From: a phage
DNA length: 64,000 nucleotides
Direction: 5' to 3' (one strand)
Sequence record: PV467749.1
The position numbers were made by a program, and so were the translations under genes. Under the pieces are notes generated by a model. The model did not search any database, had not been told where the DNA came from, and saw nothing but the letters and a program-made list of their open reading frames with translations. Each line of letters starts with the position of its first letter. Positions within the stretch are counted from its first letter, which is position 1. Below are positions 11,793 to 34,382 of the stretch, piece by piece.

Positions 11793-11863
11793 ACACAATG
11801 CCAGTACTTGAGTACTGGCATTCTTTTTGATTAAATATAGTATAATGAATAAAGGAGGGAAAT
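11793..11863 (+). promoter_or_regulatory. array cassette: terminator + promoter + SD
   Basis: gccagtacttgagtactggc 11800-11819 + T-run; canonical string. Confidence 0.7.
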
Positions 11864-13042: not shown

Positions 13043-13112
13043 TATTATGCCAGTACTTGATACTGGCATTTCTTTTTGTATTAAATATAGTATAATGAAT
13101 AAAGGAGGAAAT
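13043..13112 (+). promoter_or_regulatory. array cassette: terminator + promoter + SD
   Basis: gccagtacttgatactggc 13049-13067 + T-run; canonical string. Confidence 0.7.
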
Positions 13113-14288
13113 ATGTTACCTTTTGCAAGAATGGTTAAGTACGGAAACAGAGTTCCAGCACCTTCAGGTGTTATGAAGATAAGTACATCTCCATCACATA
13201 TGGGTATGTTATTTGATAGTGGTAACTTATATCTACGTGGAAATGGTGCACACTATATGCTAGGAAATAATAGCACTGCGTATGTGCAAAATGGGTGGGT
13301 ACAGTGTCCATATAAAGTTTCTAATGTTTGGTGCTTCTTTGCAGCAACAATTATACTTACGACTGACGGAGAATTTTACTTAGCTGGTCAAATGGGTTAT
13401 GTCGGTGTATCTGCATCACCAGTTCCTGGATGGACTAATATCACATCTTTATTGTCTACAATACCAGCACTTACTACAGTAGTAGATATAGCTGCTACTG
13501 AAACTACTGCATCAAATGGTGCGTTATTGATTTTGTTAAGTAATGGGGACTTATATGGGATTGGGCGTAATACAGGAGGTGCATTGGGTGTTACTGGTAG
13601 AAAAACAACGCCAATTCAGATTGCTACTGGGGTTACTATAATTGCGGGAACAACGGCTGGGGATGCTTTCCATTATGTTAAAAATAATCAATACTACAGA
13701 TGTGGGAATAACGCAAGTTACAACTTAGGATCAGGTTCTTCTAACCTTTCGACATTTACGGTAAGTACTGATATATCGGGAACAGTTATTGGTATTTCAT
13801 GTACTACATTAACGACTTCAGTACTTACATCTAATAGAAATAATATTAATGTATATACGGCTGGAAAAAACACTGATTATTGTTTAGGAATAGGGTATGG
13901 CGACACTACTAGTATCATGAGTCCATTTAGTGCCACTCCCGCAATTAGTGGTATTATACCAGATGCTGGGTCGATGAACAATCACAGTTTGAATTATTTT
14001 ATAATGGCAATGACACAGAATGGTAAACTTTATACATGTGGTAGTGGTGTTCCTCTTGGTTGGCCTGTTACTACTGCATCAGAAAGATCTTATTACCACC
14101 AGGTACAATATGAGGATATGGATGTTGCACCAGATGTTAATGCATTTTCAGTTCAAGGTGGTTCTGGTGTGTTATACGCGTTAGTGGGGACTAATGAGGT
14201 GTACTGGTGTGGTAACGGGTCTATGTTTCAGGAACAGAGTCCAGGTACACAACAAGTTAAAATGAAGAAAATGATTTTACCAGAATAA
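13113..14288 (+). CDS. RCC1-like repeat protein, array member 12 (VKYGN subtype)
   Basis: MLPFARMVKYGNRVPAP at Met23 of ORF 13047; GRNTGGALGV, GNNASYNLGSG; C-term KKMILPE. Confidence 0.85.
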   Translation: MLPFARMVKYGNRVPAPSGVMKISTSPSHMGMLFDSGNLYLRGNGAHYMLGNNSTAYVQNGWVQCPYKVSNVWCFFAATIILTTDGEFYLAGQMGYVGVSASPVPGWTNITSLLSTIPALTTVVDIAATETTASNGALLILLSNGDLYGIGRNTGGALGVTGRKTTPIQIATGVTIIAGTTAGDAFHYVKNNQYYRCGNNASYNLGSGSSNLSTFTVSTDISGTVIGISCTTLTTSVLTSNRNNINVYTAGKNTDYCLGIGYGDTTSIMSPFSATPAISGIIPDAGSMNNHSLNYFIMAMTQNGKLYTCGSGVPLGWPVTTASERSYYHQVQYEDMDVAPDVNAFSVQGGSGVLYALVGTNEVYWCGNGSMFQEQSPGTQQVKMKKMILPE

Positions 14289-14367
14289 AATGTGAAATAC
14301 AATGCATGTACTCAGTACTGGCTTTTCTTTTTTATTAAATATAGTATAATGAATAAAGGAGGGAAAT
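14289..14367 (+). promoter_or_regulatory. array cassette with degenerate hairpin
   Basis: gcatgtactcagtactggc 14303-14321 (two mismatches in the stem) + T-run; canonical promoter/SD. Confidence 0.55.
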
Positions 14368-15717
14368 ATGTTACCTTTTGTTAGAATGTTTGATTATGGG
14401 AATACAGTAGATGTTCCAACTGTAAAGAAATTCGACTCCATTGGTATGGGTCATGATAGGAATGGTGGTGGTAATTGGTTTGGTGCAATATTAGCATCAA
14501 ATGGAAATTTATATGGTATTGGTCAAACAAAATATGTTTCTTTTGGTATAACACCAACCAATGGTACAGGAATTGAATTAGTACGAAAAAATGTAAACAA
14601 TTTTTGGCTACTATCAAATGGAATAATAGTTAAAGATAATGATGGTTCATATCATTTTTGTGGTGTATATGCAAATGGAATATTCACACATTCAAGTATA
14701 ACTACAGCACCTTTTATAACAAATGGTTTTATAAATGTATCTTCTTATTTTTCTAACGTAGGTGAAGTTGTGGAAATGGTATTCTGTGGTGGATATGATA
14801 AAGGTCCAGCAACATCATTAACCCCAGCATACACTTCAAAATATAGTTGTATTTTGGCAGCATTGAACACTAATGGTGAAATCTGGTATATGGGTTTGTC
14901 GATACAAGGTTTAATAAACAACTCCACATCAGATTACTACTTTACTTCTTTTACTAAAGATAATCAATTGACACAAAAAGCAGTTTCATTAAGATGCACA
15001 ATAGACATGTCACATAATAATGTGTATTTTGTTGGTAATAGACCTGTACTTTATGCCAAATTAGAAGATGGTACAATCGTAGGCAAGGGATATAATATAC
15101 GATATGGTATACAAAAACCAGCTAGTACAAACCAAGTGATTAAAACGTGGACTACAGTGGCTGTAATCGGAACAGCAGATGATTTTGATGCAACAAACGA
15201 AGGCATGATGTACTGCTCAAATTCACAACTATATCGCTGTGGTAATGGTGGTGGTTTTTCTTTCTGGAATGGTACAAGTAGTGTGTATTATATGGGCTAC
15301 AACGTTGGTATGTTTCTAATCGGTGCGAATGACGTCAACCGTGTAGCGGGTGGTTTTAACGTCCTAACTACAGGGATTAAAGATGATGTAGGTATAAATG
15401 TACCAACTTCATCCAGTACCAAAATACGAATGAACTACTGTGGAACTGTAATTTTTGAACCCGGAACAACATCAATATATAAAGCACATGGTGTTTATAG
15501 TGATTACTATGCTAGTCCTTCATGGCAAGCGGGAGCAGTCGCTTCATTTACATATGAAGACATTGGTATTAAAATCAAAGATGCTATGTATGTTGGTGGT
15601 ACTCTTGGGTTTACAACATATGGATTATTAGTGGTTAGTACTGAAGGTAAGGTATATTGGAGAGGTGTGTACAACGGTGTAACATATAAAACACTCACAG
15701 AAATACATTTGTTGTAA
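14368..15717 (+). CDS. divergent propeller-like protein, array member 13 (449 aa)
   Basis: MLPFVRMFDYGN start. The body is poorly RCC1-like; membership rests on the N-terminus and the cassette. Confidence 0.75.
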   Translation: MLPFVRMFDYGNTVDVPTVKKFDSIGMGHDRNGGGNWFGAILASNGNLYGIGQTKYVSFGITPTNGTGIELVRKNVNNFWLLSNGIIVKDNDGSYHFCGVYANGIFTHSSITTAPFITNGFINVSSYFSNVGEVVEMVFCGGYDKGPATSLTPAYTSKYSCILAALNTNGEIWYMGLSIQGLINNSTSDYYFTSFTKDNQLTQKAVSLRCTIDMSHNNVYFVGNRPVLYAKLEDGTIVGKGYNIRYGIQKPASTNQVIKTWTTVAVIGTADDFDATNEGMMYCSNSQLYRCGNGGGFSFWNGTSSVYYMGYNVGMFLIGANDVNRVAGGFNVLTTGIKDDVGINVPTSSSTKIRMNYCGTVIFEPGTTSIYKAHGVYSDYYASPSWQAGAVASFTYEDIGIKIKDAMYVGGTLGFTTYGLLVVSTEGKVYWRGVYNGVTYKTLTEIHLL

Positions 15718-15787
15718 TATAGTGCCAGTACTCTGTACTGGCTTTTCTTTTTGTATTAAATATAGTATAATGAATAAAGGAGGAATT
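15718..15787 (+). promoter_or_regulatory. array cassette: terminator + promoter + SD
   Basis: gccagtactctgtactggc 15723-15741 + T-run; canonical string. Confidence 0.7.
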
Positions 15788-16939
15788 ATGTTACCTTTTG
15801 CAAGAATGGTTAAGTACGGGAATATTTCACCTGTTCCTGCAACACCAACTATAAAAGATTTTAAGATTGGTTTTACCCATGAAGTGTTATTGGACAGTGC
15901 AGGTGATGTGTGGGGTATTGGATATAATACCGCTGGACAGTTGGGATTTCTGGATGCTAACACAAATTCAATAGGAATGTGGTCTAAGATACATGAGAAT
16001 GTTAGATTAATTGGCGTTACTGCCAAATATACTGTAGTTGTTACAAATGATAATAGAATACTTTACGCCGGAAATAACTTAATTTCTAGTACTACAACGC
16101 TTGGGTGGAACGATATAACGTCCAGTATGGGAGAGGTTGCAGTGGATAGTATAGATACATTATATTGCACAGATGGAATGATGCATATTAAAACTGCTGA
16201 TGGCTCTTTATATGCATATGGACGTAATATGAACGCGAACGCTGGAGTTACAGGCGTTTCTGGCGTTATTAGTGTTGCAACTAAAGTTAATGGTTTACCA
16301 TCGGCAGTGAAGGATATACGATATACGTTTAGTTATGGTTCAGTACTATGCCAATTTGATACCACTTCGGTATATGGATGGGGAAGAAATGTCAATGGTG
16401 AATTAGGTCAGGGGAATGCAGCCGCAGTTCCTGCCCCATACCTATTGGCGGGAGCTTCTATTGTTATAGGTACTTCTTATAATGCTACTGCCATTGTTTC
16501 TGGTACTGGAACGTTAGTTACATGTGGTGGACAAAATAATGGTCAGTTAGGTAATGGTATTACTACTGCTGGTAATGTATACATATATGGTGCTAGGTCA
16601 TACCCTGGCGATCTTAATAATATAAGAAGTCCAGTAGATTGTAGTACAACTTATACTTCCGCATTTATGAGTACAGATGGTATATATTACACGGGTTCGA
16701 ACCGAAGTGTTTTTGGTGGTGCGAGTGGTTCTGCTACTGTTGCATTATATACTAAATGTAGTGATTTGCCAATATTATATTCCAATATAACTCAGTGGGG
16801 TAGTGGTACTATTGGTGGGGCGATATGTAGCAGAACTGAATTATATCAGTGTGGTACAGGTAGATACATTGCCGGAGATGGACAGAACGCAACTAGGTAT
16901 GGGTTTAGAAAGACACCATTACCTTGGGATGTTTATTGA
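15788..16939 (+). CDS. RCC1-like repeat protein, array member 14 (VKYGN subtype)
   Basis: MLPFARMVKYGNISPVP at ATG 15788; GRNVNGELGQGN, GQNNGQLGNG (best RCC1 match in the array). Confidence 0.9.
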   Translation: MLPFARMVKYGNISPVPATPTIKDFKIGFTHEVLLDSAGDVWGIGYNTAGQLGFLDANTNSIGMWSKIHENVRLIGVTAKYTVVVTNDNRILYAGNNLISSTTTLGWNDITSSMGEVAVDSIDTLYCTDGMMHIKTADGSLYAYGRNMNANAGVTGVSGVISVATKVNGLPSAVKDIRYTFSYGSVLCQFDTTSVYGWGRNVNGELGQGNAAAVPAPYLLAGASIVIGTSYNATAIVSGTGTLVTCGGQNNGQLGNGITTAGNVYIYGARSYPGDLNNIRSPVDCSTTYTSAFMSTDGIYYTGSNRSVFGGASGSATVALYTKCSDLPILYSNITQWGSGTIGGAICSRTELYQCGTGRYIAGDGQNATRYGFRKTPLPWDVY

Positions 16940-16945
16940 AATAAT

Positions 16946-16965
16946 GCCAGTACTCAAGTACTGGC
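16946..16965. terminator. bidirectional hairpin between convergent genes
   Basis: gccagtac-tcaa-gtactggc, A-rich before and T-run after. Confidence 0.7.
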
Positions 16966-16972
16966 ATTTCTT

Positions 16973-17623
16973 TTACATATTATATAATGTGAATGCAGTC
17001 ACTTTACCAGTTGTTGTTAGTTCATTATAAAGATACTCCAAGATTCTCGCACACTCTAAGTATATCTCGATATCATCATGAATAAGTGAGTACTGAAATA
17101 GCTGTTCTTCAGGTAATTTGTATTGACTTCCTTTTAATGAATTGAGAATATCTTTCACATCATCAAGTACTGGGTAAAGTACGAAATCTTCATCATATTT
17201 TGAAGCAATAAATTCAAATCCACCACCATCAGTACTAGATATACCAATCAGTACTTTATCAATCAAGTTAATGTTTATATAACGGTTGTGATTTGGGTGA
17301 ATTGAAATCTCAAACATACGAGTACTGTTACAATCAACATCAATATACAAATATACATCATTGAATTTATAAGTTAAACAACCGTACTCAAGAAAATCAG
17401 AACAAATAATTGATGAGTTTTTTCTTGTCTCTGCGTAATGCATCTTGATATTCTTTTCACGCATAAGTAATTCGAACTTTGCACTAAACTTGCCACCAGC
17501 AAGATAGTTAGTATTAGGACGTTTGTAACTTGCAACTGGTCGGTGGGATGATGTAAAGTATTTTTTTGTGAATCGTTTCTGTTTAGTGAAATATTCTTGA
17601 TAGAACTTACTTCTTTTATTCAT
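16973..17623 (-). CDS. hypothetical protein, EE-x-FQ family member inserted in the array on the opposite strand
   Basis: 216 aa ORF; C-terminal PEEQLFQYSLIHDD motif shared with 10 other ORFs in the window. Confidence 0.75.
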   Translation of the reverse strand: MNKRSKFYQEYFTKQKRFTKKYFTSSHRPVASYKRPNTNYLAGGKFSAKFELLMREKNIKMHYAETRKNSSIICSDFLEYGCLTYKFNDVYLYIDVDCNSTRMFEISIHPNHNRYININLIDKVLIGISSTDGGGFEFIASKYDEDFVLYPVLDDVKDILNSLKGSQYKLPEEQLFQYSLIHDDIEIYLECARILEYLYNELTTTGKVTAFTLYNM

Positions 17624-17700
17624 GAGTACCTCAATTAAATCGCTGTAAAATTGTACATTATAAAATGATTAAATAAAGTATAACACAAGGAGATTTTATC
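17624..17700. promoter_or_regulatory. divergent promoter region
   Basis: The + side has gattaaataaagtataac + aaggag before ATG 17701. The minus side has ttttataat upstream of ATG 17623. Confidence 0.5.
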
Positions 17701-18825
17701 ATGTTACCTTTCGTATTGTTATTTGATTATGGGAACGAAAAACAAGAAAGTTCTTATGATGTTAGTGTATATGGAAACAATAACTACATTTTAAATAAAC
17801 AAACTGGAAACCTTTTTGCATCCGGTGCTGCGGCATTCATGGGTGATAACACAGTTAAGTATTATATTACCCAAATAGAATCAAATGTTCATAGCTGTGA
17901 GATAGGTTTCCTATCATCATGGATAATTAAGAAGGACAAAACTGTTTTCATTTTAGGAAACAAAAGCAGTATAGGATTAACTGGTTCGACAACATCATGG
18001 TTCGAAATTACAAATTTATTTTCTGCTGTTCCTGAAATATGGGACAACCTATTTGAATGTAAAGTTCAATTGGGATATAACTGTATACGTGTTATGACAC
18101 CACTAGGATCAATCTATGCGATTGGTACAAACACTTATGGTGCATTGGGTACTGGTACTACATCCTCATCAACTTCGTTCGTTAAAAGTGGTGCTGTGGA
18201 TGCTGTACGCATGGAATCAACAGAACGTTCAGTGTTCTATCAAAACAGTTCTGGACAATGGTTTGGATGTGGTGATAACACATATGGTATACTAGGTCTA
18301 GGAACTACCGCGAGTCGTGTAAACTCATACACCGCACCAGTATGGACTAATGCAGAAGCTGTTAGCTTCTCTAACCGTGGGATCATATACAGCCTCAATG
18401 GTACTCTATACTCATGTGGTGACAAAGTTAATGGTCAGCTAGGGGATGGATATACACAAAGCATAGACGCTGCCAGGAGCACACCATACACCATAGGAAC
18501 CGCATTCCAAATTGGTAAGGCAATAACATCAGCTACACAAGCATCAGCCAACGTATTCATTGGTAAAGATAATAAGTTCTATGGTACTGGTAGTATTGCT
18601 GCTGGTATAAATGGTAGTACTAGTGCTGCATTAAGTAAAGTTACTGCGTTATCAGCAGCACTACCACCTGACATTACATACAATGATATTATAACATTTA
18701 ATACAGGGACCGTAACTTTTATTCAAGCAAAAGGACAACTATATTATGTTGGTAGAAGAACTTACATAGATAATAGTTCAGACGTTACCACACAGTTCAG
18801 TGTAATTGGTGGCTTAGATAATTAA
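17701..18825 (+). CDS. RCC1-like repeat protein, array member 15/16 (last)
   Basis: MLPFVLLFDYGN; GTNTYGALGTGT, GDNTYGILGLGT, GDKVNGQLGDG. Confidence 0.85.
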   Translation: MLPFVLLFDYGNEKQESSYDVSVYGNNNYILNKQTGNLFASGAAAFMGDNTVKYYITQIESNVHSCEIGFLSSWIIKKDKTVFILGNKSSIGLTGSTTSWFEITNLFSAVPEIWDNLFECKVQLGYNCIRVMTPLGSIYAIGTNTYGALGTGTTSSSTSFVKSGAVDAVRMESTERSVFYQNSSGQWFGCGDNTYGILGLGTTASRVNSYTAPVWTNAEAVSFSNRGIIYSLNGTLYSCGDKVNGQLGDGYTQSIDAARSTPYTIGTAFQIGKAITSATQASANVFIGKDNKFYGTGSIAAGINGSTSAALSKVTALSAALPPDITYNDIITFNTGTVTFIQAKGQLYYVGRRTYIDNSSDVTTQFSVIGGLDN

Positions 18826-18830
18826 AATTA

Positions 18831-18855
18831 ATCCAGTACTATTATAGTACTGGAT
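18831..18855. terminator. bidirectional hairpin between convergent genes
   Basis: atccagtact-attat-agtactggat followed by T6. Confidence 0.7.
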
Positions 18856-18861
18856 TTTTTA

Positions 18862-19233
18862 TTATAACATACGTTTTTTACGAATAGTATTGTGGATATT
18901 TTTTAAGTAGTTCACACCTTTACACAACCCATAAAATACACCAGCACATACACCAAATGCAGGTATCATACATGCAAACATCGTTATCAATTCCCACATC
19001 TCCATGCCATCTTGATTCGGTCCAAGGTCAAAGATAACAACCGAAACCAAACCTGTGATACTTAGCATATAATATGCCATGAAGATAATAAAAGAAACAA
19101 TACCAACATCAGAGCGAACTGAATTTAGCATATTATATACTGGGGTTACACAGAAGTAATACAATAACCAAATCAAAGAACCTAAACTAAACACAATAAT
19201 AGTAATGATCGAAAATATTTCACGATAACTCAT
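18862..19233 (-). CDS. small multi-TM protein, family A member
   Basis: 123 aa, 3-4 hydrophobic segments, basic tail IRKKRML; first (3'-most) of 7 abutting paralogs. Confidence 0.7.
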   Translation of the reverse strand: MSYREIFSIITIIVFSLGSLIWLLYYFCVTPVYNMLNSVRSDVGIVSFIIFMAYYMLSITGLVSVVIFDLGPNQDGMEMWELITMFACMIPAFGVCAGVFYGLCKGVNYLKNIHNTIRKKRML

Positions 19234-19234
19234 T

Positions 19235-19597
19235 TTAGTTCCTCTTACCTAAACGCTCATGGATTTCGGAAATCTTATTATACATCCATGCCAGCAACTC
19301 AACGGATGCACAGAGAATAACCACACACAGTGTTAGTGAACATACCATAATACCAAATGTTATAAAATTCGAACTCGATGTTAATAATGCAACCAGCATT
19401 AGAATAAAACCAAAATTGAATGCTGTACTCAACACAGTATATGCTGGACTATATCTCCTTTGTATTACATCATATATATTTGATAATGGTCGCTTATGGA
19501 AGTACTTCCCAATGCACACGAATGCATTCAGTGAGAAGATAAATGTATACGCCATTACCATTAATTGACCAATAAAAGATAATTCAATATTATTCAT
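19235..19597 (-). CDS. small multi-TM protein, family A member
   Basis: 120 aa; GKYFHKRPLSNIYD after TM1; tail RLGKRN; 1-nt gap to neighbours. Confidence 0.7.
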   Translation of the reverse strand: MNNIELSFIGQLMVMAYTFIFSLNAFVCIGKYFHKRPLSNIYDVIQRRYSPAYTVLSTAFNFGFILMLVALLTSSSNFITFGIMVCSLTLCVVILCASVELLAWMYNKISEIHERLGKRN

Positions 19598-19598
19598 G

Positions 19599-19970
19599 TT
19601 ATCCTCGTTTGCGGTATTTGATGCTTTGGTGCATTCTCTGAAAATGTGGAACTAATACATATTGTACGGTTTGCCAAATTACCATCAGATTATGGACAGC
19701 ACCACCGAGTAGACCAAACACTACACAGATAATTGCCAGTACTGGATCACCATCTACCATACCCCATTTGAATATATGTAAAATCCATACAGTGATAAGT
19801 AGTAATAAACTAATCCAATACGTAGTAAAAAATCCTGCATGTAATTCATAGTCATCAGCAATTTCATCGTATACGGTTTCCAAGAAGGATACACAGAAGA
19901 ACTTGCCAATAATAATAATTGTACTAATAAACAACATAGCAGTTAATATAATAAGTGCAATTTCCATCAC
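19599..19970 (-). CDS. small multi-TM protein, family A member
   Basis: 123 aa; GKFFCVSFLETVYDE; tail KYRKRG. Confidence 0.7.
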   Translation of the reverse strand: MMEIALIILTAMLFISTIIIIGKFFCVSFLETVYDEIADDYELHAGFFTTYWISLLLLITVWILHIFKWGMVDGDPVLAIICVVFGLLGGAVHNLMVIWQTVQYVLVPHFQRMHQSIKYRKRG

Positions 19971-20281
19971 ATCCCTCGTTTACGCTTTTGATTGCGTCTA
20001 AATTCGGTTAGCCCACGACTAATCGGTGGCATCAGACTACATAAAAAAATAACAGTTGTTGGTAATAACATGAAGTCAATCATTGCTGTATTAACAGGTG
20101 GATCACATACCAAATAATACAAACAAGTAATACTAATTATGGTTGACCCAATAAAAGGAATACAAAATTCTTTTATCTGTTTTTCAACATAATCAAACAT
20201 CTTCAATACAAATAAAAATCCAACCCAACACATAATAAAATAGAATGAATAAAGCGTGTAAATCAATGTTACGATATCCAT
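19967..20281 (-). CDS. small multi-TM protein, family A member
   Basis: 104 aa; ATGA overlap; tail NQKRKRGM. Confidence 0.7.
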   Translation of the reverse strand: MDIVTLIYTLYSFYFIMCWVGFLFVLKMFDYVEKQIKEFCIPFIGSTIISITCLYYLVCDPPVNTAMIDFMLLPTTVIFLCSLMPPISRGLTEFRRNQKRKRGM

Positions 20282-20619
20282 TAGTACCTCGCATCAGGAA
20301 CTTTAGCACGTAATTTATGAACGACTGGGAACAACAACAAACTTACATATGCAATAGTTGAACCCCAATAGAATACTAATATAATTGGTTCACCATTGGA
20401 ACGGAACCCTCTACTAATCATTGAGTAGTGAATAATAGGCATGAACATCGCCATACCAAACCATGCGTGTAATTTTAATTGCAGCATGTTATCAGAGATG
20501 AATACTGAAATTGGTCGTTTGAAGAACCACATCAGAAAGTAGAATCCAGCACTAAGGATATAGTACATAGTACTAACTTTCATATACCACGGCAGTAAGT
20601 GTAAAAAATATTCCATCAT
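20281..20619 (-). CDS. small multi-TM protein, family A member
   Basis: 112 aa; WFFKRPISVF; tail LRAKVPDARY. Confidence 0.7.
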   Translation of the reverse strand: MMEYFLHLLPWYMKVSTMYYILSAGFYFLMWFFKRPISVFISDNMLQLKLHAWFGMAMFMPIIHYSMISRGFRSNGEPIILVFYWGSTIAYVSLLLFPVVHKLRAKVPDARY

Positions 20620-20963
20620 TCCTCCGGTATCTTGTTTCGAAGTTCAATCATAACACAACAAAGTTTAATGGTCAAGTAAAAAACTACACATATCATACCC
20701 AATGTACCGTAAACTGCGGAGAATGCTGGCAGTACCTTTCCTGTGAGTGTTGCTACAATACATGCTATCAATGTTGATGCAAACAACGATTGATTAATGA
20801 AAGAATTCATAAAATCTTCACCATTACGCTTATAGAATTGTCGTTTAAAATACCATCCTAGAAACATAACTACCCAAAATGTTACATAACCTGTTAGAAT
20901 AATCCCTGCAATTGAATGTGCAACAGAACTACTCTTTAAAAACTCAAGATAAGATTCAAACAT
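20616..20963 (-). CDS. small multi-TM protein, family A member
   Basis: 115 aa; WYFKRQFYKRNG; tail LRNKIPEE. Confidence 0.7.
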   Translation of the reverse strand: MFESYLEFLKSSSVAHSIAGIILTGYVTFWVVMFLGWYFKRQFYKRNGEDFMNSFINQSLFASTLIACIVATLTGKVLPAFSAVYGTLGMICVVFYLTIKLCCVMIELRNKIPEE

Positions 20964-21301
20964 TAGAAGTCCCCACGAATTTTTGCTCTACCATTAATGA
21001 TGAGATTAAACAAGTATATCAGCACCCAAATTAGTAATCCAAGGAATACAATATATTGTGATATTGAGTTCAACTGTGGATTAGCACAATAAATTAAGTG
21101 TGCGATAAGACCAACAATTGCAAACATACCTTGGATAATAGTGAAAAGAAGTAGTGAAATGTTTCCATCTGGATACAGTTTGAAAACGATTTTCTTTTTA
21201 AAATACCATAGTACTACAACTAGTGCATGATAAAAGAAAAAACCAAACAGATAAATCAAAGTAATACTAAGCATTGTATCTGAATTAAAAAACTCAAGCA
21301 T
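20963..21301 (-). CDS. small multi-TM protein, family A member
   Basis: 112 aa; WYFKKKIVFKLYPDG; tail GRAKIRGDF. Confidence 0.7.
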   Translation of the reverse strand: MLEFFNSDTMLSITLIYLFGFFFYHALVVVLWYFKKKIVFKLYPDGNISLLLFTIIQGMFAIVGLIAHLIYCANPQLNSISQYIVFLGLLIWVLIYLFNLIINGRAKIRGDF

Positions 21302-21368
21302 ATCGTATCTCCGGTGGTGAATATTAAGTTATAGTACTACACTATGGTAGTACTGTCAATACATGTAA

Positions 21369-22142
21369 TTAAATTTTCTCAAGGAACATGTTTTCTGCCA
21401 TTGACTCCCAATCATATGGAAATTTATTATACAGACCAGCGATCAGTACTGGCATACGCAGAGAAGGTGAACGCAGCTTTTCTTCGTTGTTCAGCATCCA
21501 GTTTAAGATAGCTTTACAACCATTTTTATTAACCCCATTGTTCTCAAGAATATTAGTCTTGTTCATGATGTTCTCAATGTGAATCATAACTTCTTCGTTA
21601 GTGAACAGTTGAAGATCAACAAAGATACTACGAGTAATCAGTGCATCAATGTGTGGTGCTAAACTGCTTTTACCTTTAGCAATCTGTGACAGGTTTTTGT
21701 TCGTCAGGAAGATTACCTTCCCACGGAATTCAAACTGCTTAGGAATACCCTGCTGTTCCAGGTACTTCCCAGAAGTTGCATAAGATACAACCCGCTTCTC
21801 TGAAGTATCCAGTACTGCTTTGAGCAAGTCAATGTTGGTTTCATCGCTGAAGATATCAACGTCATCAAGTAACAGTACTGAAGCGGCATGACGTGAACGA
21901 TACAGTGCTTCGTACAAACCCATAGTGGTTACTTTACCGCTGATCTTTTTGTAGTCGATTTCAAAGTTATCATCAGCTTTCTGTAAACGCTGGTCAACGT
22001 TGTAAGTTTTACCAACACCACCTTTACCAGATACAATCAGGGAATTGATTGAATTAGCTTGGGTATCAAGTAAACATTCCAAAGCTGCCATCATGCTGTT
22101 GAAGTTCTTTTCGATTTGGATTGCTTTCTCTGTACGGGTCAT
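21369..22142 (-). CDS. P-loop / AAA-like ATPase
   Basis: Walker A SGKGGVGKT; Walker B LLLDDVD; FLTN sensor-like. Confidence 0.7.
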   Translation of the reverse strand: MTRTEKAIQIEKNFNSMMAALECLLDTQANSINSLIVSGKGGVGKTYNVDQRLQKADDNFEIDYKKISGKVTTMGLYEALYRSRHAASVLLLDDVDIFSDETNIDLLKAVLDTSEKRVVSYATSGKYLEQQGIPKQFEFRGKVIFLTNKNLSQIAKGKSSLAPHIDALITRSIFVDLQLFTNEEVMIHIENIMNKTNILENNGVNKNGCKAILNWMLNNEEKLRSPSLRMPVLIAGLYNKFPYDWESMAENMFLEKI

Positions 22143-22170
22143 GTATTCATCCTCTCGTCTTGATGAAATA

Positions 22171-22203
22171 ATTATAGCAAAAAGGGCTGACCGAAGTCAA
22201 CCC
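22171..22203 (-). terminator. fused terminator/promoter module copy 1
   Basis: gggctgaccgaagtcaaccc 22184-22203 (minus sense GGGTTGAC-UUCG-GTCAGCCC + T5). TTGACT lies in the stem, then an 18-nt spacer and TATAAT (22171-22176). Confidence 0.7.
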
Positions 22204-22610
22204 TTTTTTCTTTCAATCAAACATAGTCTACCAGAATGTACCATGCGATGGTGATTAGAACAAAGAATCATACACTTTCGAATTTCATCTTTGATAGCAT
22301 CTCGACTTTTACTGAACATAGAACTTGGTGTATGTTCTTTGGTATTAGGGTCAAGATGGTGAAAGTCTAAACATTCTGGATACTTCATCATACAAACACT
22401 ACAACCATAAAATGATTTAACTCTGGTCATGAAATCTTTATTTTTTCTTTTGATTTCTTCAAGTTTTTTGACATCAGTTTTTTTATTTCTGGTTTTCTTA
22501 CTGGTAATATTACTACAACCTTTGCATGTATTTCTATGTTTCCCAGTATCACTTCTTATACCAAATTCACTAATGTCTTTTTCAATATTACACGTGATAC
22601 ACTTCTTCAT
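22197..22610 (-). CDS. HNH endonuclease
   Basis: Cys-rich N-terminus; LDFHHLDPNTK...ILCSNHHRMVH. Confidence 0.75.
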   Translation of the reverse strand: MKKCITCNIEKDISEFGIRSDTGKHRNTCKGCSNITSKKTRNKKTDVKKLEEIKRKNKDFMTRVKSFYGCSVCMMKYPECLDFHHLDPNTKEHTPSSMFSKSRDAIKDEIRKCMILCSNHHRMVHSGRLCLIERKKG

Positions 22611-22894
22611 TGTTTAATCCATTTATTCAACAATGCACCCAACTTCACAATCTCATACCCATCCAGATAGCCATAGGAACACTCAGGTGTTTCATAAGTT
22701 GAACCATCATGGATACCTTGGCATTGGCTTTTGGAACGTTCAAGCAATCGTTGCAGTACTGATACGTCATCAAGAACGTAATACAAGTTAGCATATGGGT
22801 CCGTCACAATACAGTACTTAAACATACCAAATGTATCAATCGATTTTTCAACCTTAGCAAATTGTTTCTTTTCTTTATTATACAGTGCGTACAT
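22607..22894 (-). CDS. hypothetical protein
   Basis: Start moved to ATG 22894 (ggag SD; TAATATG junction with the upstream stop). Confidence 0.6.
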   Translation of the reverse strand: MYALYNKEKKQFAKVEKSIDTFGMFKYCIVTDPYANLYYVLDDVSVLQRLLERSKSQCQGIHDGSTYETPECSYGYLDGYEIVKLGALLNKWIKQ

Positions 22895-22895
22895 A

Positions 22896-23267
22896 TTAAT
22901 CTCCACAATCAAGTTTAACTAACTTACCACCCAGATACCCAAAGTTTTCTGGCTTCGCATCTGAATAGAAGAAGTCAGTACTCAACTCTGAATCCAATGC
23001 TAAAGCACACAACTCCACCCAAAATAAACCCCTATGTTGTACTGGCTTACAACGTTTCTGTACAGTTACTAGTCCAGTACATGATGACCACAACGTAGGG
23101 CAGATACCACTATCACTACGCTTGGAGTACTGCATCCAAGAACGTTCATTGAGGTTAGCTATCATCCCTGTTAAGAATAGCTTCCAACTTTTAAAGGTTG
23201 GAATCTTGATAGCATATTCCCCAATGAGTATGACAGTTCGGGTTGCACCTTTCAAATCTATATTCAT
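22896..23267 (-). CDS. minimal protein-kinase-like ORF (tentative)
   Basis: YAIKIP (beta3 Lys-like), SDAKPENFG (catalytic-loop-like D-x-K-x-x-N), C-terminal KLDCGD (DFG-like); only 123 aa. Confidence 0.35.
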   Translation of the reverse strand: MNIDLKGATRTVILIGEYAIKIPTFKSWKLFLTGMIANLNERSWMQYSKRSDSGICPTLWSSCTGLVTVQKRCKPVQHRGLFWVELCALALDSELSTDFFYSDAKPENFGYLGGKLVKLDCGD

Positions 23268-23276
23268 ATTTTTTAA

Positions 23277-23528
23277 TTAGAAGAACACAAACCAAGTCCA
23301 GAATAAATTCCACACTACAAATAAAGACATAGTGGTTTTATGTACAATATCAGCAGTACTGGTCCATCCTCCACCGTGTCCTATTCCATTTATGAATAGA
23401 ACTAAGAACAAGATACCATTTACTACAATAGTACATAGTAAGTACACAAACACATTCCATGCAAGTTCAGGGGATACTAACGTAAATGGTAAAACAATTA
23501 GTAGTATTAGAACTAATAAAATTTTCAT
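23277..23528 (-). CDS. small membrane protein
   Basis: 83 aa, three hydrophobic segments. Confidence 0.6.
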   Translation of the reverse strand: MKILLVLILLIVLPFTLVSPELAWNVFVYLLCTIVVNGILFLVLFINGIGHGGGWTSTADIVHKTTMSLFVVWNLFWTWFVFF

Positions 23529-23556
23529 TTATCGCCTCACTTAATTAACGTGACAA

Positions 23557-23733
23557 TTAGTACGAATCAGATTCCCAGTACTCGATTGCTTCTTTCAGCA
23601 ATTCTTTAGCACGTTGTTTTGCAATGCGAGCGGGTAACAGATATGTGTACATTAACTGACGCTTCACTTCATTCAGTGAAAGCTGTTCATGGTACAGTGC
23701 ATCCATCAGTCGATTACGAGTACGTAGTTTCAT
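23557..23733 (-). CDS. small hypothetical protein (58 aa, below ORF-track cutoff)
   Basis: Hand translation MKLRTRNRLMDALYHEQLSLNEVKRQL...EYWESDSY fills an otherwise empty 200-nt gap. Confidence 0.5.
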   Translation of the reverse strand: MKLRTRNRLMDALYHEQLSLNEVKRQLMYTYLLPARIAKQRAKELLKEAIEYWESDSY

Positions 23734-23744
23734 ATAAGTTATCC

Positions 23745-24299
23745 TTATTTCAAAGAATCATAGTAAGCAGTGTCAAAGATTGGAGTCATAATAACATAGT
23801 CAATACGGTCAATGTAAGTTGAACTCCACATTTCTGGTTTGTCATAAAATTGACGCTCGCGTTCATTCATACGAGTCAGTACTTCTTCCAATTTACTACG
23901 TGAAGCCATCAATGTATTACGCGATCCATAAGTGAAGTACTCAGTCCATTGATATTCATATTCAGTACTGATAGATTGAATAGTACCATCTTTGAAATGA
24001 GCTAAGGCATATCCTTTCTCTACAAAGTTATCAGGTGGAAGAACACTATCTGGATTAGTTTTCAATGCTTTGGTTAACTTTTCTTTAATTTCAGTTAACG
24101 TGCATACTGAACGAATGTTCTTCAGGTTTGATACTTGAAAATCACTGTACTTTCCAAAGAAAAATACACGCCAATCTTTAGGTTCATTATCAGATACGGT
24201 AATATTCGGATGATGGGCGAGTAAACGAAGAAGGCCAGCTTTGTGACCGTTAATGTAGATCTCATGGATGTGGTTAGCAGTTTTCTTAAAAGTAATCAT
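23745..24299 (-). CDS. hypothetical protein
   Basis: Start moved to MITFKK (ATG 24299, SD gaggaa), downstream of promoter 24346-24373. Confidence 0.65.
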   Translation of the reverse strand: MITFKKTANHIHEIYINGHKAGLLRLLAHHPNITVSDNEPKDWRVFFFGKYSDFQVSNLKNIRSVCTLTEIKEKLTKALKTNPDSVLPPDNFVEKGYALAHFKDGTIQSISTEYEYQWTEYFTYGSRNTLMASRSKLEEVLTRMNERERQFYDKPEMWSSTYIDRIDYVIMTPIFDTAYYDSLK

Positions 24300-24345
24300 G
24301 ACAATTCCTCGATTGTGGGATGAGAAGTTCATCCCCTTGATAAAC

Positions 24346-24373
24346 ATTATACAGTACTGAATGAGTTTGTCAA
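24346..24373 (-). promoter_or_regulatory. sigma70-type promoter
   Basis: Minus sense TTGACA-aactcattcagtactg-TATAAT (16-nt spacer). Confidence 0.7.
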
Positions 24374-24374
24374 C

Positions 24375-24755
24375 TCAAAATAAATTCATTTCATGTGCGT
24401 ATTGTGGTTCAAGATGCGATAAGTTTTTGAAGCTTTCTTTCAACTCAGCATCATCTACATACACCGTGCCTGGTACATTCCCCATAGTGAAACCTACCCA
24501 CACAGTCATGTCACCAGTCCCTAAGCGTGGCATTGATAGCGAACCATCAGGTGAAACATCAAACGCTACACTGAAGTCATCAGTAACAACGTCAGAACCA
24601 TTTTCGAGAATAATACATCCACTATCTTTAAGCTTCTGAATGTGGATAGCAGCCTCTACAGCACGTTTGAAGTTATAGTAAGACTCTTTATCCTCAAACA
24701 TTGATTGTTTAATCAGACGCTTGTTTAGCTCGGTTACTTTGTGCATTTGACGCAT
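24375..24755 (-). CDS. hypothetical protein
   Basis: 126 aa ORF on the minus coding strand. Confidence 0.6.
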   Translation of the reverse strand: MRQMHKVTELNKRLIKQSMFEDKESYYNFKRAVEAAIHIQKLKDSGCIILENGSDVVTDDFSVAFDVSPDGSLSMPRLGTGDMTVWVGFTMGNVPGTVYVDDAELKESFKNLSHLEPQYAHEMNLF

Positions 24756-25012
24756 TACTTATCCATCTCCCACAGTTGTAGAATTTCATAAGAGCCTGGT
24801 GGTGCTGGATTCCTGATCTCAGGGAATTGAGTACTTTTAGGATTTCCACCAGCATTAAATTCGTCAAGTAATGATTCCAGTTCGCGACGATCCTGAACAA
24901 CATAAACACAATCACCTGAACCTTCTTCGAGAATCATTTCACTTCCTGCACAATCCCATACTGTTGAGATACATAGAATCTCTTTTGTATTTTTATTACG
25001 CAATGCAAACAT
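24755..25012 (-). CDS. hypothetical protein
   Basis: 85 aa; 1-nt overlap with the downstream gene. Confidence 0.6.
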   Translation of the reverse strand: MFALRNKNTKEILCISTVWDCAGSEMILEEGSGDCVYVVQDRRELESLLDEFNAGGNPKSTQFPEIRNPAPPGSYEILQLWEMDK

Positions 25013-25020
25013 AGCACCCC

Positions 25021-25365
25021 CTATCGATTTGGCATTTTATCTCGTAATCTAATGAGATAATCAACCACAGACCATGTTGAAATGAAAGTGATATAAGTAC
25101 CGAAGAATCCTACCAGAATAAAGGCAACAAGTGTACTCCCATTTGGATCTTCAGCTTTAATACCGATGATACCATCAAATACAGTGAAAAATGTAGACAT
25201 ACACGTTAAACAGATGTACATCACCAATAAGAATTCATGTTTCAATGATGGATATAAACGGTCAAAGAGTTTATAAAATTTAAAGTACAGTAGGAGTATA
25301 CCAACAAAGACATAGAAAGTAAACAGTGTTGTTATGATATATGATATTAAATTTAAATTATACAT
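25021..25365 (-). CDS. small multi-TM protein, family A member
   Basis: LYFKFYKLFDRLYPSLK; tail RLRDKMPNR; start moved to ATG 25365 (ggag SD). Confidence 0.7.
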   Translation of the reverse strand: MYNLNLISYIITTLFTFYVFVGILLLYFKFYKLFDRLYPSLKHEFLLVMYICLTCMSTFFTVFDGIIGIKAEDPNGSTLVAFILVGFFGTYITFISTWSVVDYLIRLRDKMPNR

Positions 25366-25366
25366 C

Positions 25367-25708
25367 TCAACGCTCCGGTAGATTATCACGTAATGTTTTG
25401 ATTCGATTATACAATTTCATTGCTACATTTCCAAATAAACCAAAACCCATTACTAAAATGTATGCGATGATCATAGTAATAATTACAATAGTACCTAGAC
25501 TGTAATGTACTGCACTGATACCCATTATTGTTTCTACAATGATGTGAGCAACAGAAATAATCAAAAGTACTACTACAATTGGATGATTTGGATACATTCG
25601 GTTAAACAATGTTTTGTACTTAAAGAAGTACAGTACTCCACCAAATAAGAAGTACACAATGTAGATTGATGCAACTGCATAAGCAAACGCATTAGTGTAA
25701 AAAATCAT
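25367..25708 (-). CDS. small multi-TM protein, family A member
   Basis: LYFFKYKTLFNRMYPNH; tail LRDNLPER. Confidence 0.7.
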   Translation of the reverse strand: MIFYTNAFAYAVASIYIVYFLFGGVLYFFKYKTLFNRMYPNHPIVVVLLIISVAHIIVETIMGISAVHYSLGTIVIITMIIAYILVMGFGLFGNVAMKLYNRIKTLRDNLPER

Positions 25709-25717
25709 TATCAATCC

Positions 25718-26056
25718 TTACTTTTCAGGGATTTTATTACGCCACTCATCGATGCGATGAAGCAGTTTAAAGAGCAAAAATATCGGAACAGTAGCTATCA
25801 TAGTAGCAATTGTTAGTAATGTCAACACCGATACGAGATTTAATTCGTCAGTACTATATCCACATACCAGTGCTTCAATTATCCCCCACGTACATACACT
25901 GAACATCAAAAATGAAATTGGTGCATCGTAGTATATGCGTTGATACAAGGTCGTGTATCGGAAGAATGCAATAATGTAACAAAACATGTAATACACCCAA
26001 ATTAACGATACTACATAAAATGATACCTTATTAATTAATTCAAAATGATGTTCCAT
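25718..26056 (-). CDS. small multi-TM protein, family A member
   Basis: AFFRYTTLYQRIYYDAP; tail WRNKIPEK. Confidence 0.7.
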   Translation of the reverse strand: MEHHFELINKVSFYVVSLIWVYYMFCYIIAFFRYTTLYQRIYYDAPISFLMFSVCTWGIIEALVCGYSTDELNLVSVLTLLTIATMIATVPIFLLFKLLHRIDEWRNKIPEK

Positions 26057-26352: not shown

Positions 26353-26766
26353 TTATGCTGGTACACAATTTTTTATAATGAATACACGTTTCATGAATGA
26401 ACTTTCATATACGTACTTCAGTTTACCATTTTCACGCATACGATGAAACACATCTTTACCGCTAGTACTCCATGTTGAACCAGTCTCTGCATCAACATTG
26501 TTCATTACACCAGATGTTACATTCACCCCGTACTTGAAGCTAAAGGTACTACCTTCTTCTACTAGAGGGATTGGTGTACTACGTTCATGTTCCAGTACAA
26601 GTTTACTGCCGATGATGTTGTACGAAGTTAGCTTGCATTTTAAAACACCCATCTCTTGTGCAGTTGGGTAATTCTTCTCAAATAAATCAGATACTTCATT
26701 TGCATAACAAACTGAACTAATCATAAGAAGTAATGAACTGATAGAACGGAAAATAACTTTTAACAT
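26353..26766 (-). CDS. secreted small protein (signal peptide, two-Cys family)
   Basis: N-terminus MLKVIFRSISSLLLMISSVCYA; Cys near the mature N-terminus region and at KNCVPA. Confidence 0.65.
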   Translation of the reverse strand: MLKVIFRSISSLLLMISSVCYANEVSDLFEKNYPTAQEMGVLKCKLTSYNIIGSKLVLEHERSTPIPLVEEGSTFSFKYGVNVTSGVMNNVDAETGSTWSTSGKDVFHRMRENGKLKYVYESSFMKRVFIIKNCVPA

Positions 26767-26792: not shown

Positions 26793-26825
26793 ATTATAGC
26801 AAAAAGGGCCGACCGAAGTCAACCC
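26793..26825 (-). terminator. fused terminator/promoter module copy 2
   Basis: gggccgaccgaagtcaaccc 26806-26825; gattatagc (TATAAT on the minus strand) 18 nt from the stem TTGACT. Confidence 0.7.
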
Positions 26826-26832: not shown

Positions 26833-27207
26833 TTATATTTTACATGTCATGTCTGGTTTTGGCTTTTCATTCTTTGGCTTTTCAAATGGATTTGGCTTAG
26901 GGGACTTTTTATCTTTGTCATCTTTAGCTTTCTTTTTGTTTTCTTTTTTATCCGATTTGTCAGCTTTGTCTTTCTTATCTTTTGAATCTTTGTCAGCTTT
27001 AGATTGTGGTTCCTCACATACAGCAGTTTTTGGCTCCGGCATATCACATGAGTTATCCACTGGTTTAATGAACTCTTTACAGTTGTAGAAGTATAAACTT
27101 TCATTGGTAGTAAGATTGTGGAATCTAAAGGTATTTTCACCATTAGTATATACTTTCTTAGTACTCTCAATATCATTACACATTGCAACTGTGTCACCGG
27201 AATTCAT
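26833..27207 (-). CDS. hypothetical protein with K/D-rich low-complexity tail
   Basis: KADKDSKDKKDKADKSDKKENKKKAKDDKDKK... Two other ORFs in this stretch are alternative frames of the repeat. Confidence 0.55.
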   Translation of the reverse strand: MNSGDTVAMCNDIESTKKVYTNGENTFRFHNLTTNESLYFYNCKEFIKPVDNSCDMPEPKTAVCEEPQSKADKDSKDKKDKADKSDKKENKKKAKDDKDKKSPKPNPFEKPKNEKPKPDMTCKI

Positions 27208-27445
27208 GCTCGATACCTATTACATCCGACTTACGTTCAGATAGTATTCCAGACGTATATCGATCTTTGTTATCAAATGCATTGAACCCTATAGTTTTAT
27301 TATTGTCATGTACCAATCCTCTAGTGTAAGACTTGGTATAGAACTCACCGTTTCTAAACTCCTGTCTAGCAATGGAGCACTGGTATTCAGTACTATAAAC
27401 TATATCAGTAAACAATACAAGTGAAAATAAAACATATTTAAACAT
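27194..27445 (-). CDS. secreted small protein (signal peptide)
   Basis: MFKYVLFSLVLFTDIVYS then TEYQC. Confidence 0.6.
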   Translation of the reverse strand: MFKYVLFSLVLFTDIVYSTEYQCSIARQEFRNGEFYTKSYTRGLVHDNNKTIGFNAFDNKDRYTSGILSERKSDVIGIEHEFR

Positions 27446-29407: not shown

Positions 29408-29665
29408 TCACTTCTCCTGTTTTTTCTTAGGATCAACCAATGACCAAATGAAGAATCCGAGAATTACAAGTACCCACAGAATCATGATAAAGAAAGCAAA
29501 CAGTACAATAGTATTTGTCAAAAAGAAATACAATAGAATGTTCGACCCAATACTACATACAATCAATGCAGCTTCATGTTTAACAACACGAATGGCTGTA
29601 ATGAGTGCGGGAAGAAATCCGACAAATAACAGTACTAATGCATATAGTGATAATGTTTCAGCCAT
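29408..29665 (-). CDS. small membrane protein
   Basis: 85 aa, three hydrophobic segments. Confidence 0.6.
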   Translation of the reverse strand: MAETLSLYALVLLFVGFLPALITAIRVVKHEAALIVCSIGSNILLYFFLTNTIVLFAFFIMILWVLVILGFFIWSLVDPKKKQEK

Positions 29666-31454: not shown

Positions 31455-31691
31455 TTATTTTTTAATAGATTCATAAAGCAGAAACAACCAAATAAACATT
31501 GATGAACAAACTACTACTGGGATTAATGTAAATTCAGTAAAGAATAAAAGTATTCCATAAGTTAGTATGCAACATAAGTTTACGTACATAATTGCTTCTG
31601 CATTTTTATTTTTCATTTTATATGCAATGAATGTTGGTGACCACATTACCAAAAATGCAAACAACGCACATATGATGATTATAGTTTCCAT
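31455..31691 (-). CDS. small membrane protein
   Basis: 78 aa, two or three TM segments. Confidence 0.6.
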   Translation of the reverse strand: METIIIICALFAFLVMWSPTFIAYKMKNKNAEAIMYVNLCCILTYGILLFFTEFTLIPVVVCSSMFIWLFLLYESIKK

Positions 31692-33651: not shown

Positions 33652-34002
33652 TTAGTCCTCATATTTACACAAGCCACCGAATGTTGCCTGTTTTGCTGCC
33701 TTACGCATCATCACAAGTTTAACATACTGTTCACCATTACTTTCTTCATATACATCAACTTGAAGAAATGCAAGCATATTGGGATCAGTATCATTCGAGT
33801 ACTGCGTAAAACTAATGTCACCTACAGTATGTTCTTTAACAAAATTATACACTTCACCATCGATATAAACGATAGTATGGTCATCGCTATCACCTTGGTA
33901 AATGTGTTTAATATCACCTTCAGTACAGACTAGTCCAGGTAATGGTTCTGCATAAGACATACCACATATAATCATACAAACAAAAAACAAAATTACTTTC
34001 AT
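33652..34002 (-). CDS. secreted small protein (two-Cys family)
   Basis: MKVILFFVCMIICGMSYA; GLVC...GGLCKYED; IVYIDGEVYNFVKE aligns to ORF 34393. Confidence 0.65.
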   Translation of the reverse strand: MKVILFFVCMIICGMSYAEPLPGLVCTEGDIKHIYQGDSDDHTIVYIDGEVYNFVKEHTVGDISFTQYSNDTDPNMLAFLQVDVYEESNGEQYVKLVMMRKAAKQATFGGLCKYED

Positions 34003-34382
34003 GATTTGTTTCCTTTGGATAAAATGGATTTCTTCACTTTGTACTGCTTGTAGTTATTATACCAAACATCGATTACATAAATCAAGTACCAAAGTGATGG
34101 ATATAATGATAGACCAATAAAAACTGAAAAAATACTTGTATTAATAAAACCAATACAGTGCAGTGTAAATGCAACGATTAGAATACCAATCGTAATCATA
34201 CTAGCTGAATATGGTACACTATCAGATGCGAACCATGAATCAACCTTACTAATTAAAGTATACTTCCCAGTACTAACAGCATAAACAATTGCTACTATAC
34301 CAAATAATGCCATTGAAATAGTTATTACTGAGTTAATAAGAATCGGAGTAATTAATACATAAAGCATTACATCGTTTATCAT
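33999..34382 (-). CDS. membrane protein
   Basis: 127 aa, four hydrophobic segments. Confidence 0.6.
   Translation of the reverse strand: MINDVMLYVLITPILINSVITISMALFGIVAIVYAVSTGKYTLISKVDSWFASDSVPYSASMITIGILIVAFTLHCIGFINTSIFSVFIGLSLYPSLWYLIYVIDVWYNNYKQYKVKKSILSKGNKS

Follow-up and report, generated by a model that had tools for sequence, protein, structure and literature searches.

Class I holins such as lambda S105 are proteins of about 105 amino acids (aa) with three transmembrane (TM) domains, an N-out/C-in topology and a basic C-terminal tail. Superinfection exclusion is the role of another set of phage proteins, T4 Imm (83 aa, two TM segments, encoded by a single gene), HK97 gp15 and P22 SieA. 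On the host side, the one-TM proteins AcrZ, SgrT, MgtS and KdpF can plausibly act only by binding larger membrane proteins at the level of their helices, and early phage membrane proteins of unknown function are already a familiar theme. Here we describe ten genes for small membrane proteins that lie in two arrays (18862-21301 and 25021-26056) within a 64,000-nucleotide (nt) stretch of phage DNA, sequence record PV467749.1, hereafter the window. It is well supported that they constitute one lineage-specific family of small inner-membrane proteins of the RaK2/121Q-like jumbo phages, a group that is considered for therapy and carries hundreds of genes without an assigned function.

The original prediction, made on the letters of the window, listed ten open reading frames (ORFs), and all of them were confirmed on the minus strand, with products of 104-123 aa (Table 1). 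We named them m1 to m7 in array 1, which is transcribed from m7 to m1, and m8 to m10 in array 2, transcribed from m10 to m8. In Escherichia phage WPEC3 (98.5% identical), all ten carry the label "hypothetical protein". Coupling is tight, as had been claimed: the junctions are 1-nt overlaps (TAATG), 1-nt gaps or a 4-nt overlap (ATGA), to which we add a 9-nt gap between m10 and m9. For m8, m9 and m3 the true start is probably a slightly different codon from the one first listed. The ratio of nonsynonymous to synonymous substitution rates (dN/dS) was 0.10-0.56 in 29 of 30 comparisons with three relatives, the single exception being 0.84 at a dS of 0.04, so that all ten are genuine genes under purifying selection. 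In the databases, the m2 ortholog is intact yet unannotated in phAPEC6 (locus L017 5204-5568), the UE-S1 annotation (locus L003 4407-4832) instead shows a short ORF on the opposite strand, UES1_201, and the 121Q ortholog of m4 (gp229/gp228; locus L005 3043-3358) is split into two ORFs by a frameshift or a sequencing error.

Hydropathy gives exactly three hydrophobic segments in each of the ten proteins. Their membrane nature and a first TM segment followed by a turn agree with what had been predicted, whereas the number of further segments, predicted as two or three, is two in every member. Lysine and arginine residues are strongly biased, with 74 in loop 1 and the C-terminal tail against 8 in the N-terminus and loop 2 over the ten proteins, which by the positive-inside rule indicates an N-out/C-in topology for all. 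Klebsiella phage Muenster has eight array genes, and in its independently annotated record five of them bear the remark "TMHMM: 3 TMDs; N-out, C-in" (TMDs, TM domains). The AlphaFold2 model of m6 consists of three long helices at moderate confidence (predicted local distance difference test, pLDDT, 70).

Kinship among the ten was assessed by pairwise BLASTP, by searching hidden Markov models (HMMs) of the orthogroups against the 294 ORFs of the window, and by profile-profile comparison with hhalign. BLASTP similarity was significant within m8-m9-m10 only (E about 1e-9 to 1e-12) and marginal for m6-m7, and m4 showed no pairwise similarity to other members. For every orthogroup HMM but that of m4, the best non-self match among the 294 ORFs was another array member, noise beginning at E ~0.05. 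Profiles built from close orthologs only brought little gain. The decisive step was the addition of divergent copies from Asteriusvirus A4, from Klebsiella phage Muenster (Alcyoneusvirus) and from metagenomic contigs that an exhaustive hmmsearch had located. Two clades then emerged: clade A (m5, m6, m7 and m8-10), joined at 82-98% HH probability directly or via intermediate groups, and clade B (m1, m2 and m3), joined at 51-90%. Their super-profiles align over the full length at 92% (E 7e-7, 108 columns), and the m4-group profile reaches 88% against the B super-profile and 79% against that of A. Reversed-profile controls stayed at 0.7-10% (0.7-2% for the m4 group), and eight other small TM proteins of the window, together with lambda S, scored at most 6% with each of the three profiles. 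Single array members score 63-77% when compared with profiles that do not include them, and within the 64 kb of the window the three clade HMMs pick out these ten ORFs and no others.

The claim of one family thus stands at the profile level with clean controls, the profile-profile search having been proposed as a check, whereas raw pairwise similarity is limited to m8-m9-m10. The family is also not uniform, as had been implied, and splits into clade A (m5-m10), clade B (m1-m3) and m4. We conclude that all ten genes derive from a single ancestor, with high confidence within clade A and good confidence within clade B; we are moderately confident of the link between the two clades and of that to m4, which is the weakest of those seen at the profile level of sequence comparison. 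Other small TM ORFs were tried as members and rejected, namely 23277-23528, 29408-29665, 31455-31691, 33999-34382, 34837-35163, 35222-35464, 44152-44577 and 44574-45011; the last two form an adjacent three-TM pair without similarity (E = 1.3).

Alignments and column conservation confirmed the predicted aromatic-basic turn after TM1. Where TM1 reaches the cytoplasm, the motif is [LW][WY]FFK[RK] in clade A, GK[FY]F[CH]V in clade B and, in a weaker version, LFxLK.FDY in the m4 lineage. A C-terminal tail of the form R-x-K-(I/V/M/L)-P had been described as frequent in the family; it is real in m5, m6, m8 and m10, but it is confined to clade A, where the C-terminus reads [LW]R.K[IVLM]P with m9 (RDNLP) and m7 (RAKIRGDF) as deviants. 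Clade B ends in [IF]H..[IL].[KR]KR and the m4 type in F(H/R).(K/N)QK.KR; the C-termini of m1-m4 taken jointly read [IF](H/R)..[IQ].(K/R)KR. For m10, six columns are at least 80% conserved across 21 non-redundant relatives of its clade (N, Y, F, R, R, P). Family-wide information clusters on the cytoplasmic side, and little of it lies in TM2, the periplasmic loop or TM3; these parts are specific to each position in the array (slot) and conserved within slots.

Part of this tail conservation has a second source. At the junctions between 19233 and 20965 and at 25365-25370, the Shine-Dalgarno (SD) sequence of the downstream gene is embedded in the last two to four codons of the upstream gene. The KIPEE end of m6, for example, is encoded by AAG ATA CCG GAG GAA, which contains GGAGGA, the SD of m5, and similar sites are found in KRKRG (..CGA GGG, giving GAGGG), GKRN (AAG AGG AAC, giving AGAGGA) and LPER (GGAG). 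The residues after the proline and the terminal K/R-G are therefore dual-coded and partly constrained at the nucleotide level. In m8, m10 and m1, where no SD is embedded, the R..K.P core and the basic tails are still seen, which makes them protein-level features. Of the conserved basic tail that had been predicted, these features hold at the protein level, and a further part is the SD footprint of the next gene.

The window is 98.5% identical to WPEC3 over 9 kb and also matches about 35 further jumbo coliphages of the 121Q/PBECO4 type (Asteriusvirus, 350-385 kb). Our scans for the family covered the 64-kb window and about 15-20 kb of each relative. Of 40 matching phage records, 33 keep array 1 at a coverage of at least 80% and an identity of 82-99%. 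Its slots are colinear and one-to-one with those of A4 (m7 to m1 corresponding to A4_228 to A4_234), and the eight array genes of Muenster include orthologs of m7, m6 (in two copies), m5, m4, m3 and m1. In every lineage examined, comprising Escherichia and Klebsiella phages and metagenomic relatives, the order is an A block, the m4 position and a B block, and in all five lineages the m4 position holds exactly one gene, of ~101-106 aa. The blocks themselves vary in size, from three to seven genes for A (three A-type genes in array 1 of the window, seven in metagenomic contig L013) and from two to four for B, and array 1 totals 7-11 genes. A recent close paralog of m7, m7b (121Q gp224), is present in 121Q, ph0011, Sharanji, UB and G17 (sites L002 6474-6815 and L005 4378-4719) and absent from the window, WPEC3, phAPEC6 and PBECO4. 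A second, A-type-only array also occurs in a 360-kb metagenomic phage, beside a T7-like kinase gene that the window does not have. What had been described as an expansion is accordingly not recent, and we see instead an ancient ordered array with one-to-one slots in Escherichia and Klebsiella phages.

The family is narrow, with 30 clusters at 90% identity among 5.8 billion and 27 representatives, all of 89-118 aa, among 1.84 billion proteins. Some members (P0002, P0006, P0010) are listed for genome assemblies of Escherichia coli, which presumably include contigs of jumbo phages, and a divergent relative (L014/L015) is found on ~360-kb contigs from an NCBI/JGI metagenome (GCA_000227035.1; JGI 2029527005). 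Scans of all ten proteins against Pfam, NCBIfam and PADLOC returned only sub-threshold noise, a profile search of PDB sequences gave no match at E <=10, and Foldseek of the m6 model against BFVD gave nothing at E <=0.001. Several suggested relatives were examined and set aside. The ph0011 record carries the notes "Phi92_gp231/233/234" on the ATPase gene next to array 1, the m7 ortholog and another gene; the phi92 proteins so named (phi92 140299-141613) are soluble-looking, 71-121 aa long and unrelated (0.1-0.2%), so that these notes are spurious. The T4 genes around nrdC.10 (nrdC.7-9 and mobD.2a-5) are likewise unrelated (at most 5%), and the preprint on a PhiKZ "lipid compartment" in which paralogs are mentioned deals with internal head proteins and has no bearing on the arrays.

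The predicted early location of the arrays agrees with the promoter content of the region. Between 16000 and 64000, 27 matches of at least 11/12 to the sigma-70 consensus TTGACA-N16-18-TATAAT lie on the coding (minus) strand, nine of them perfect (12/12), and none on the plus strand, against an expectation of ~1.5 per strand and a maximum of 4 in 40 simulations. This imbalance argues for an early region in the style of T4, driven by the host RNA polymerase. PA5oct, which belongs to the same phage clade, relies on the host enzyme (PMC7318152). Array 1 is probably transcribed early by the host sigma-70 polymerase and translated as a coupled set. The hexamers of the weaker promoter in the spacer between the ATPase gene and m7 (TTGAC, TA[C/G]TAT) are largely conserved in WPEC3, phAPEC6, ph0011 and 121Q. 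The strong terminator that closes array 1 folds at -15.6 kcal/mol (z = -6.1), and none of 200 shuffles was as stable. Mass spectrometry detected 62 proteins in phAPEC6 virions, and the orthologs of the array proteins (gp012c-gp017c) are absent from this set (PMC7247149), which suggests that the array proteins are non-structural.

Table 1. Positions in the window of the array genes and of the features that flank or may control them (K+R, lysine plus arginine; inside, loop 1 and C-terminal tail; outside, N-terminus and loop 2; E-values and hhalign probabilities in the last column)
Feature	Position	Strand	Product	Assignment and basis
m1	18862..19233	-	123 aa	Clade B; final gene of array 1; 3 TM; K+R 7 inside vs 1 outside; clade-B HMM 8e-45; dN/dS 0.12-0.26; orthologs A4_234 (1e-28), Muenster_560 (4e-27)
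m2	19235..19597	-	120 aa	Clade B; 3 TM; K+R 9 inside vs 0 outside; ortholog A4_233 (2e-16); HMM also matches m6 ortholog A4_229 (5e-6); 74% to m3 group
m3	19599..19970	-	122-123 aa	Clade B; 3 TM; K+R 6 inside vs 1 outside; orthologs A4_232 (2e-27), Muenster_559 (2e-7); likely start ATG 19967 (122 aa), alternative GTG 19970; 369-nt form annotated in WPEC3
m4	19967..20281	-	104 aa	Separate lineage at the A/B block boundary; 3 TM; K+R 10 inside vs 0 outside; orthologs A4_231 (1e-19), Muenster_558 (1e-11)
m5	20281..20619	-	111-112 aa	Clade A; most conserved slot; orthologs A4_230 (7e-53), Muenster_557 (4e-30); 96% to P0043 group, 70% to m6; holds the sole stretch alignable with RaK2 at the DNA level (20516-20578)
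m6	20616..20963	-	115 aa	Clade A; 90% to m8-10 group; 95-96% to Muenster_554/555 and P0043 group
m7	20963..21301	-	112 aa	Clade A; opens array 1; orthologs A4_228, Muenster_556; 96% to m8-10 group
m8	25021..25389	-	114 aa	Clade A; closes array 2; BLASTP to m9 2e-9; likely start ATG 25365 (114 aa) with SD GGAG upstream, MYNLNL in database orthologs and 345 nt annotated in WPEC3; 122-aa GTG form overlaps m9 by 23 nt
m9	25367..25714	-	113 aa	Clade A; likely start ATG 25708 (113 aa), P0031 beginning MIFYTN; BLASTP to m10 2e-13, 29% identity over 109 aa
m10	25718..26056	-	112 aa	Clade A; opens array 2
NrdC.10-like P-loop ATPase	21369..22142	-		Directly upstream of array 1; tblastn 40% identity to T4 NrdC.10
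Promoter	22171..22200	-		Strong; TTGACT-18-TATAAT with TG, 11/12; upstream of ATPase and array 1
Promoter	21331..21359	-		TTGACA-17-TACTAT, 10/12; weaker; ATPase-m7 spacer; overlaps AGTACT-core hairpin
Promoter	26793..26822	-		Strong; 11/12, TG-extended; two genes upstream of array 2
Promoter	25797..25825	-		11/12; inside m10
Intrinsic terminator, bidirectional	18830..18856	both		Closes array 1 and the convergent RCC1-like gene; 12-bp stem, T-run on both strands

The arrays lie in a minus-strand block made of a long run of small genes, nearly all hypothetical, that includes a phage sigma-factor gene, tRNAs and HNH endonucleases; no lysis genes were found in this surrounding block. Their neighbours are the ATPase gene, an HNH endonuclease gene, denV (in relatives) and hypothetical early genes. 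Array 1 immediately follows the gene for the 255-257-aa NrdC.10-like P-loop ATPase in the window, A4, Muenster and metagenomic contigs L008, L013 and L014; this ATPase is found in 1310 phage records and has a weak Pfam match to AAA_16. In the window, L008 and L014, array 1 ends against convergent RCC1/WD40 genes. These plus-strand genes (window 1-18825, e.g., 17701-18825) encode RCC1/WD40-repeat proteins annotated as "DNA condensation", and mass spectrometry of phAPEC6 virions revealed the homologs of the RCC1-like proteins (gp003-gp010; PMC7247149).

A lipoprotein gene directly follows array 1 in A4 (A4_235, L007 11465-12016, with a lipobox-like ...IMTGC) and in Muenster (Muenster_562, L006 11104-11691), and in Muenster a gene for a ClpP-like protease comes next. 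Both genes are missing in the window, where the terminator follows m1. Hairpins at 16943-16968, 18830-18856 and 21330-21355 share an AGTACT core (CCAGTACT...AGTACTGG); two of them are terminator-like, and the stability of the spacer hairpin at 21330-21355 is not significant (z = -1.06). The AGTACT-core hairpins may be a phage-specific regulatory or processing motif. The stretch from the ATPase gene to array 2 (21369-24300) is a mosaic hot spot relative to L002, L003, L005 and L001, with differences that involve HNH endonucleases, denV, a DNA N6-adenine methyltransferase and a 1.5-kb endonuclease gene, and with dS of adjacent genes ranging from 0.05 to >2. Upstream of array 2, the minus-strand genes 26353-26766 and 27194-27445 have signal-peptide-like N-termini (MLKVIFRSISSLLLMISSVCYA... 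and MFKYVLFSLVLFTDIVYS...). Taken with the arrays, these genes suggest that the early region is rich in envelope-directed products.

As to function, the reading we favour, with a probability of roughly 0.4, is that the arrays encode a battery of slot-specialised effectors of the host inner membrane. The proteins would insert into this membrane within minutes of infection. Their common cytoplasm-facing base, made of FFK at the TM1 exit, an arginine in loop 1, and R..P or H..I.KKR after TM3, would serve insertion, stability or a shared partner, and the parts that are specific to each slot (TM2, periplasmic loop and TM3) would attach to conserved proteins of the host's inner membrane that differ between slots. 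This binding would close channels, transporters or the entry routes of DNA, leading to host takeover and/or the exclusion of other phages. Since the proteins are small and have no soluble domains, their action would be limited to the interior or the surface of the membrane. Conserved host targets, and not fast-evolving rivals, would explain why slots are orthologous and under purifying selection in phages of both Escherichia and Klebsiella, and the effector reading fits this deep slot orthology, the purifying selection and the variable block size. Superinfection exclusion, interference with envelope or transport functions, and anti-defence had been named as options that cannot be read from the sequence; we agree, and our results point neither way among them.

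Several observations weigh against this picture. The homology of A, B and m4 consists of profile-profile scores of TM proteins (79-92%), which shared architecture can inflate, although the controls argue otherwise. The TMHMM notes in the Muenster record give two TM domains with N-in/C-in for the m4 ortholog and three with N-in/C-out for two genes of the clade-B region. The cytoplasmic motifs could be purely topogenic, and small hydrophobic proteins are readily missed by mass spectrometry of virions. Nor is the coupling distinctive, since unrelated neighbouring genes of the region overlap too. Finally, a multi-subunit assembly would account at least equally well for the fixed A-m4-B order, for an array that is universally retained as a whole and for its tight coupling.

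This assembly is the main rival explanation: a heteromeric A/m4/B complex of the inner membrane (a pore, channel or scaffold) whose fixed proportions are set by translational coupling, perhaps together with the NrdC.10-like ATPase. We regard it as possible but rather unlikely. In its favour are an order conserved across genera with one boundary gene of ~101-106 aa in five lineages, a whole array kept in 33 relatives, stop/start overlaps with embedded SD sites, an ATPase gene always directly upstream and purifying selection in all slots. Against it stand block sizes of 3-7 (A) and 2-4 (B) and array 1 totals of 7-11, the presence or absence of m7b among near-identical phages and a separate second array that has A-type genes only. 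The ATPase is moreover found in ~1300 T4-like genomes that lack the array, its T4 neighbours being unrelated, and overlapping genes are common throughout the early region. The further proposal that A/m4/B would be a previously unknown phage-built machine specific to RaK2/121Q-like jumbo phages and installed early, as opposed to a set of independent accessory proteins, we consider unlikely; such a machine could be a gated channel or membrane platform and might work with the adjacent NrdC.10-like ATPase.

Quite improbable, in our judgement, is an anti-defence battery whose members would neutralise abortive-infection or other host defences with a sensing or effector step at the inner membrane, by analogy with T4 rII, which counters RexAB. 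Early, non-structural, multi-copy membrane proteins with slot-specific membrane-embedded parts would suit this role, and the array genes are more divergent than most of their neighbours, m1 and m2 being ~60% identical to relatives. This divergence of m1 and m2, however, is regional mosaicism shared with a neighbour outside the family (16973-17623). Known counter-defence genes are usually patchy in presence and rapid in turnover, whereas the slots are stable and orthologous across phages of different host genera, with dN/dS of 0.1-0.4, and no PADLOC-related similarity was found. A role as holins or antiholin-like lysis-timing proteins is suggested by size, topology and basic tail; the endolysin of these phages is of the signal-anchor type, and the literature consulted names no holin for them (PMC5259590). 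Holins would call for late expression, yet the arrays sit in what appears to be a sigma-70 early region; in 121Q they occupy gp207-232, ~300 genes away from the endolysin gp532 (PMC5259590). Ten copies of the gene, the lack of a match to holin families in Pfam, NCBIfam and PHROGs, and an hhalign score of 0.5% for lambda S against the family profiles add to making this very improbable.

The superfamily itself is real, well defined and previously unrecognised, and has a conserved array architecture within one jumbo-phage lineage. In the relatives scanned it is a core-like, early-region set of 8-11 membrane proteins per locus, and its definition by motifs, topology, two clades and array order makes it a tractable unit for genetics. 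Should the effectors block DNA entry or host transport, they would account for exclusion and takeover in this group of phages; should A/m4/B form a complex, it would be a new phage membrane machine.

Existing resources already hold these proteins under separate names. They correspond to seven PHROGs of "unknown function" (phrog_19285, 19046, 19454, 27396, 33258, 26405 and 27618), eight members matching at 1e-46 to 1e-61 and m2 and m8 weakly (0.034 and 4e-4), and to entries called "hypothetical protein" or "putative membrane protein" in the GenBank records of 121Q, PBECO4, RaK2 and Muenster. There they stand as seven unrelated-looking families, without the superfamily, the A/m4/B order or the conservation across genera, and our analysis merges the seven PHROG families into one superfamily. 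Among described systems, class I holins are matched in size, in the three TM segments, in N-out/C-in topology and in the basic cytoplasmic tail, but the context differs, as the arrays lie in a region of predicted early promoters and not in a late lysis cassette, and consist of ten ordered paralogs in place of one gene or a dual-start gene. Exclusion proteins of the T4 Imm type are alike only as small, non-structural inner-membrane proteins made early, early expression being predicted here from promoters, and no immunity or exclusion family was matched in Pfam or PHROG at E <=1; the mode of action that we propose also consists of blocking events at the inner membrane. AcrZ, SgrT, MgtS and KdpF offer a mechanistic analogy without homology, as short TM proteins that have no soluble domains, and the array proteins are unlike them in having three TM segments, in being encoded by a phage and in being organised in multigene arrays.

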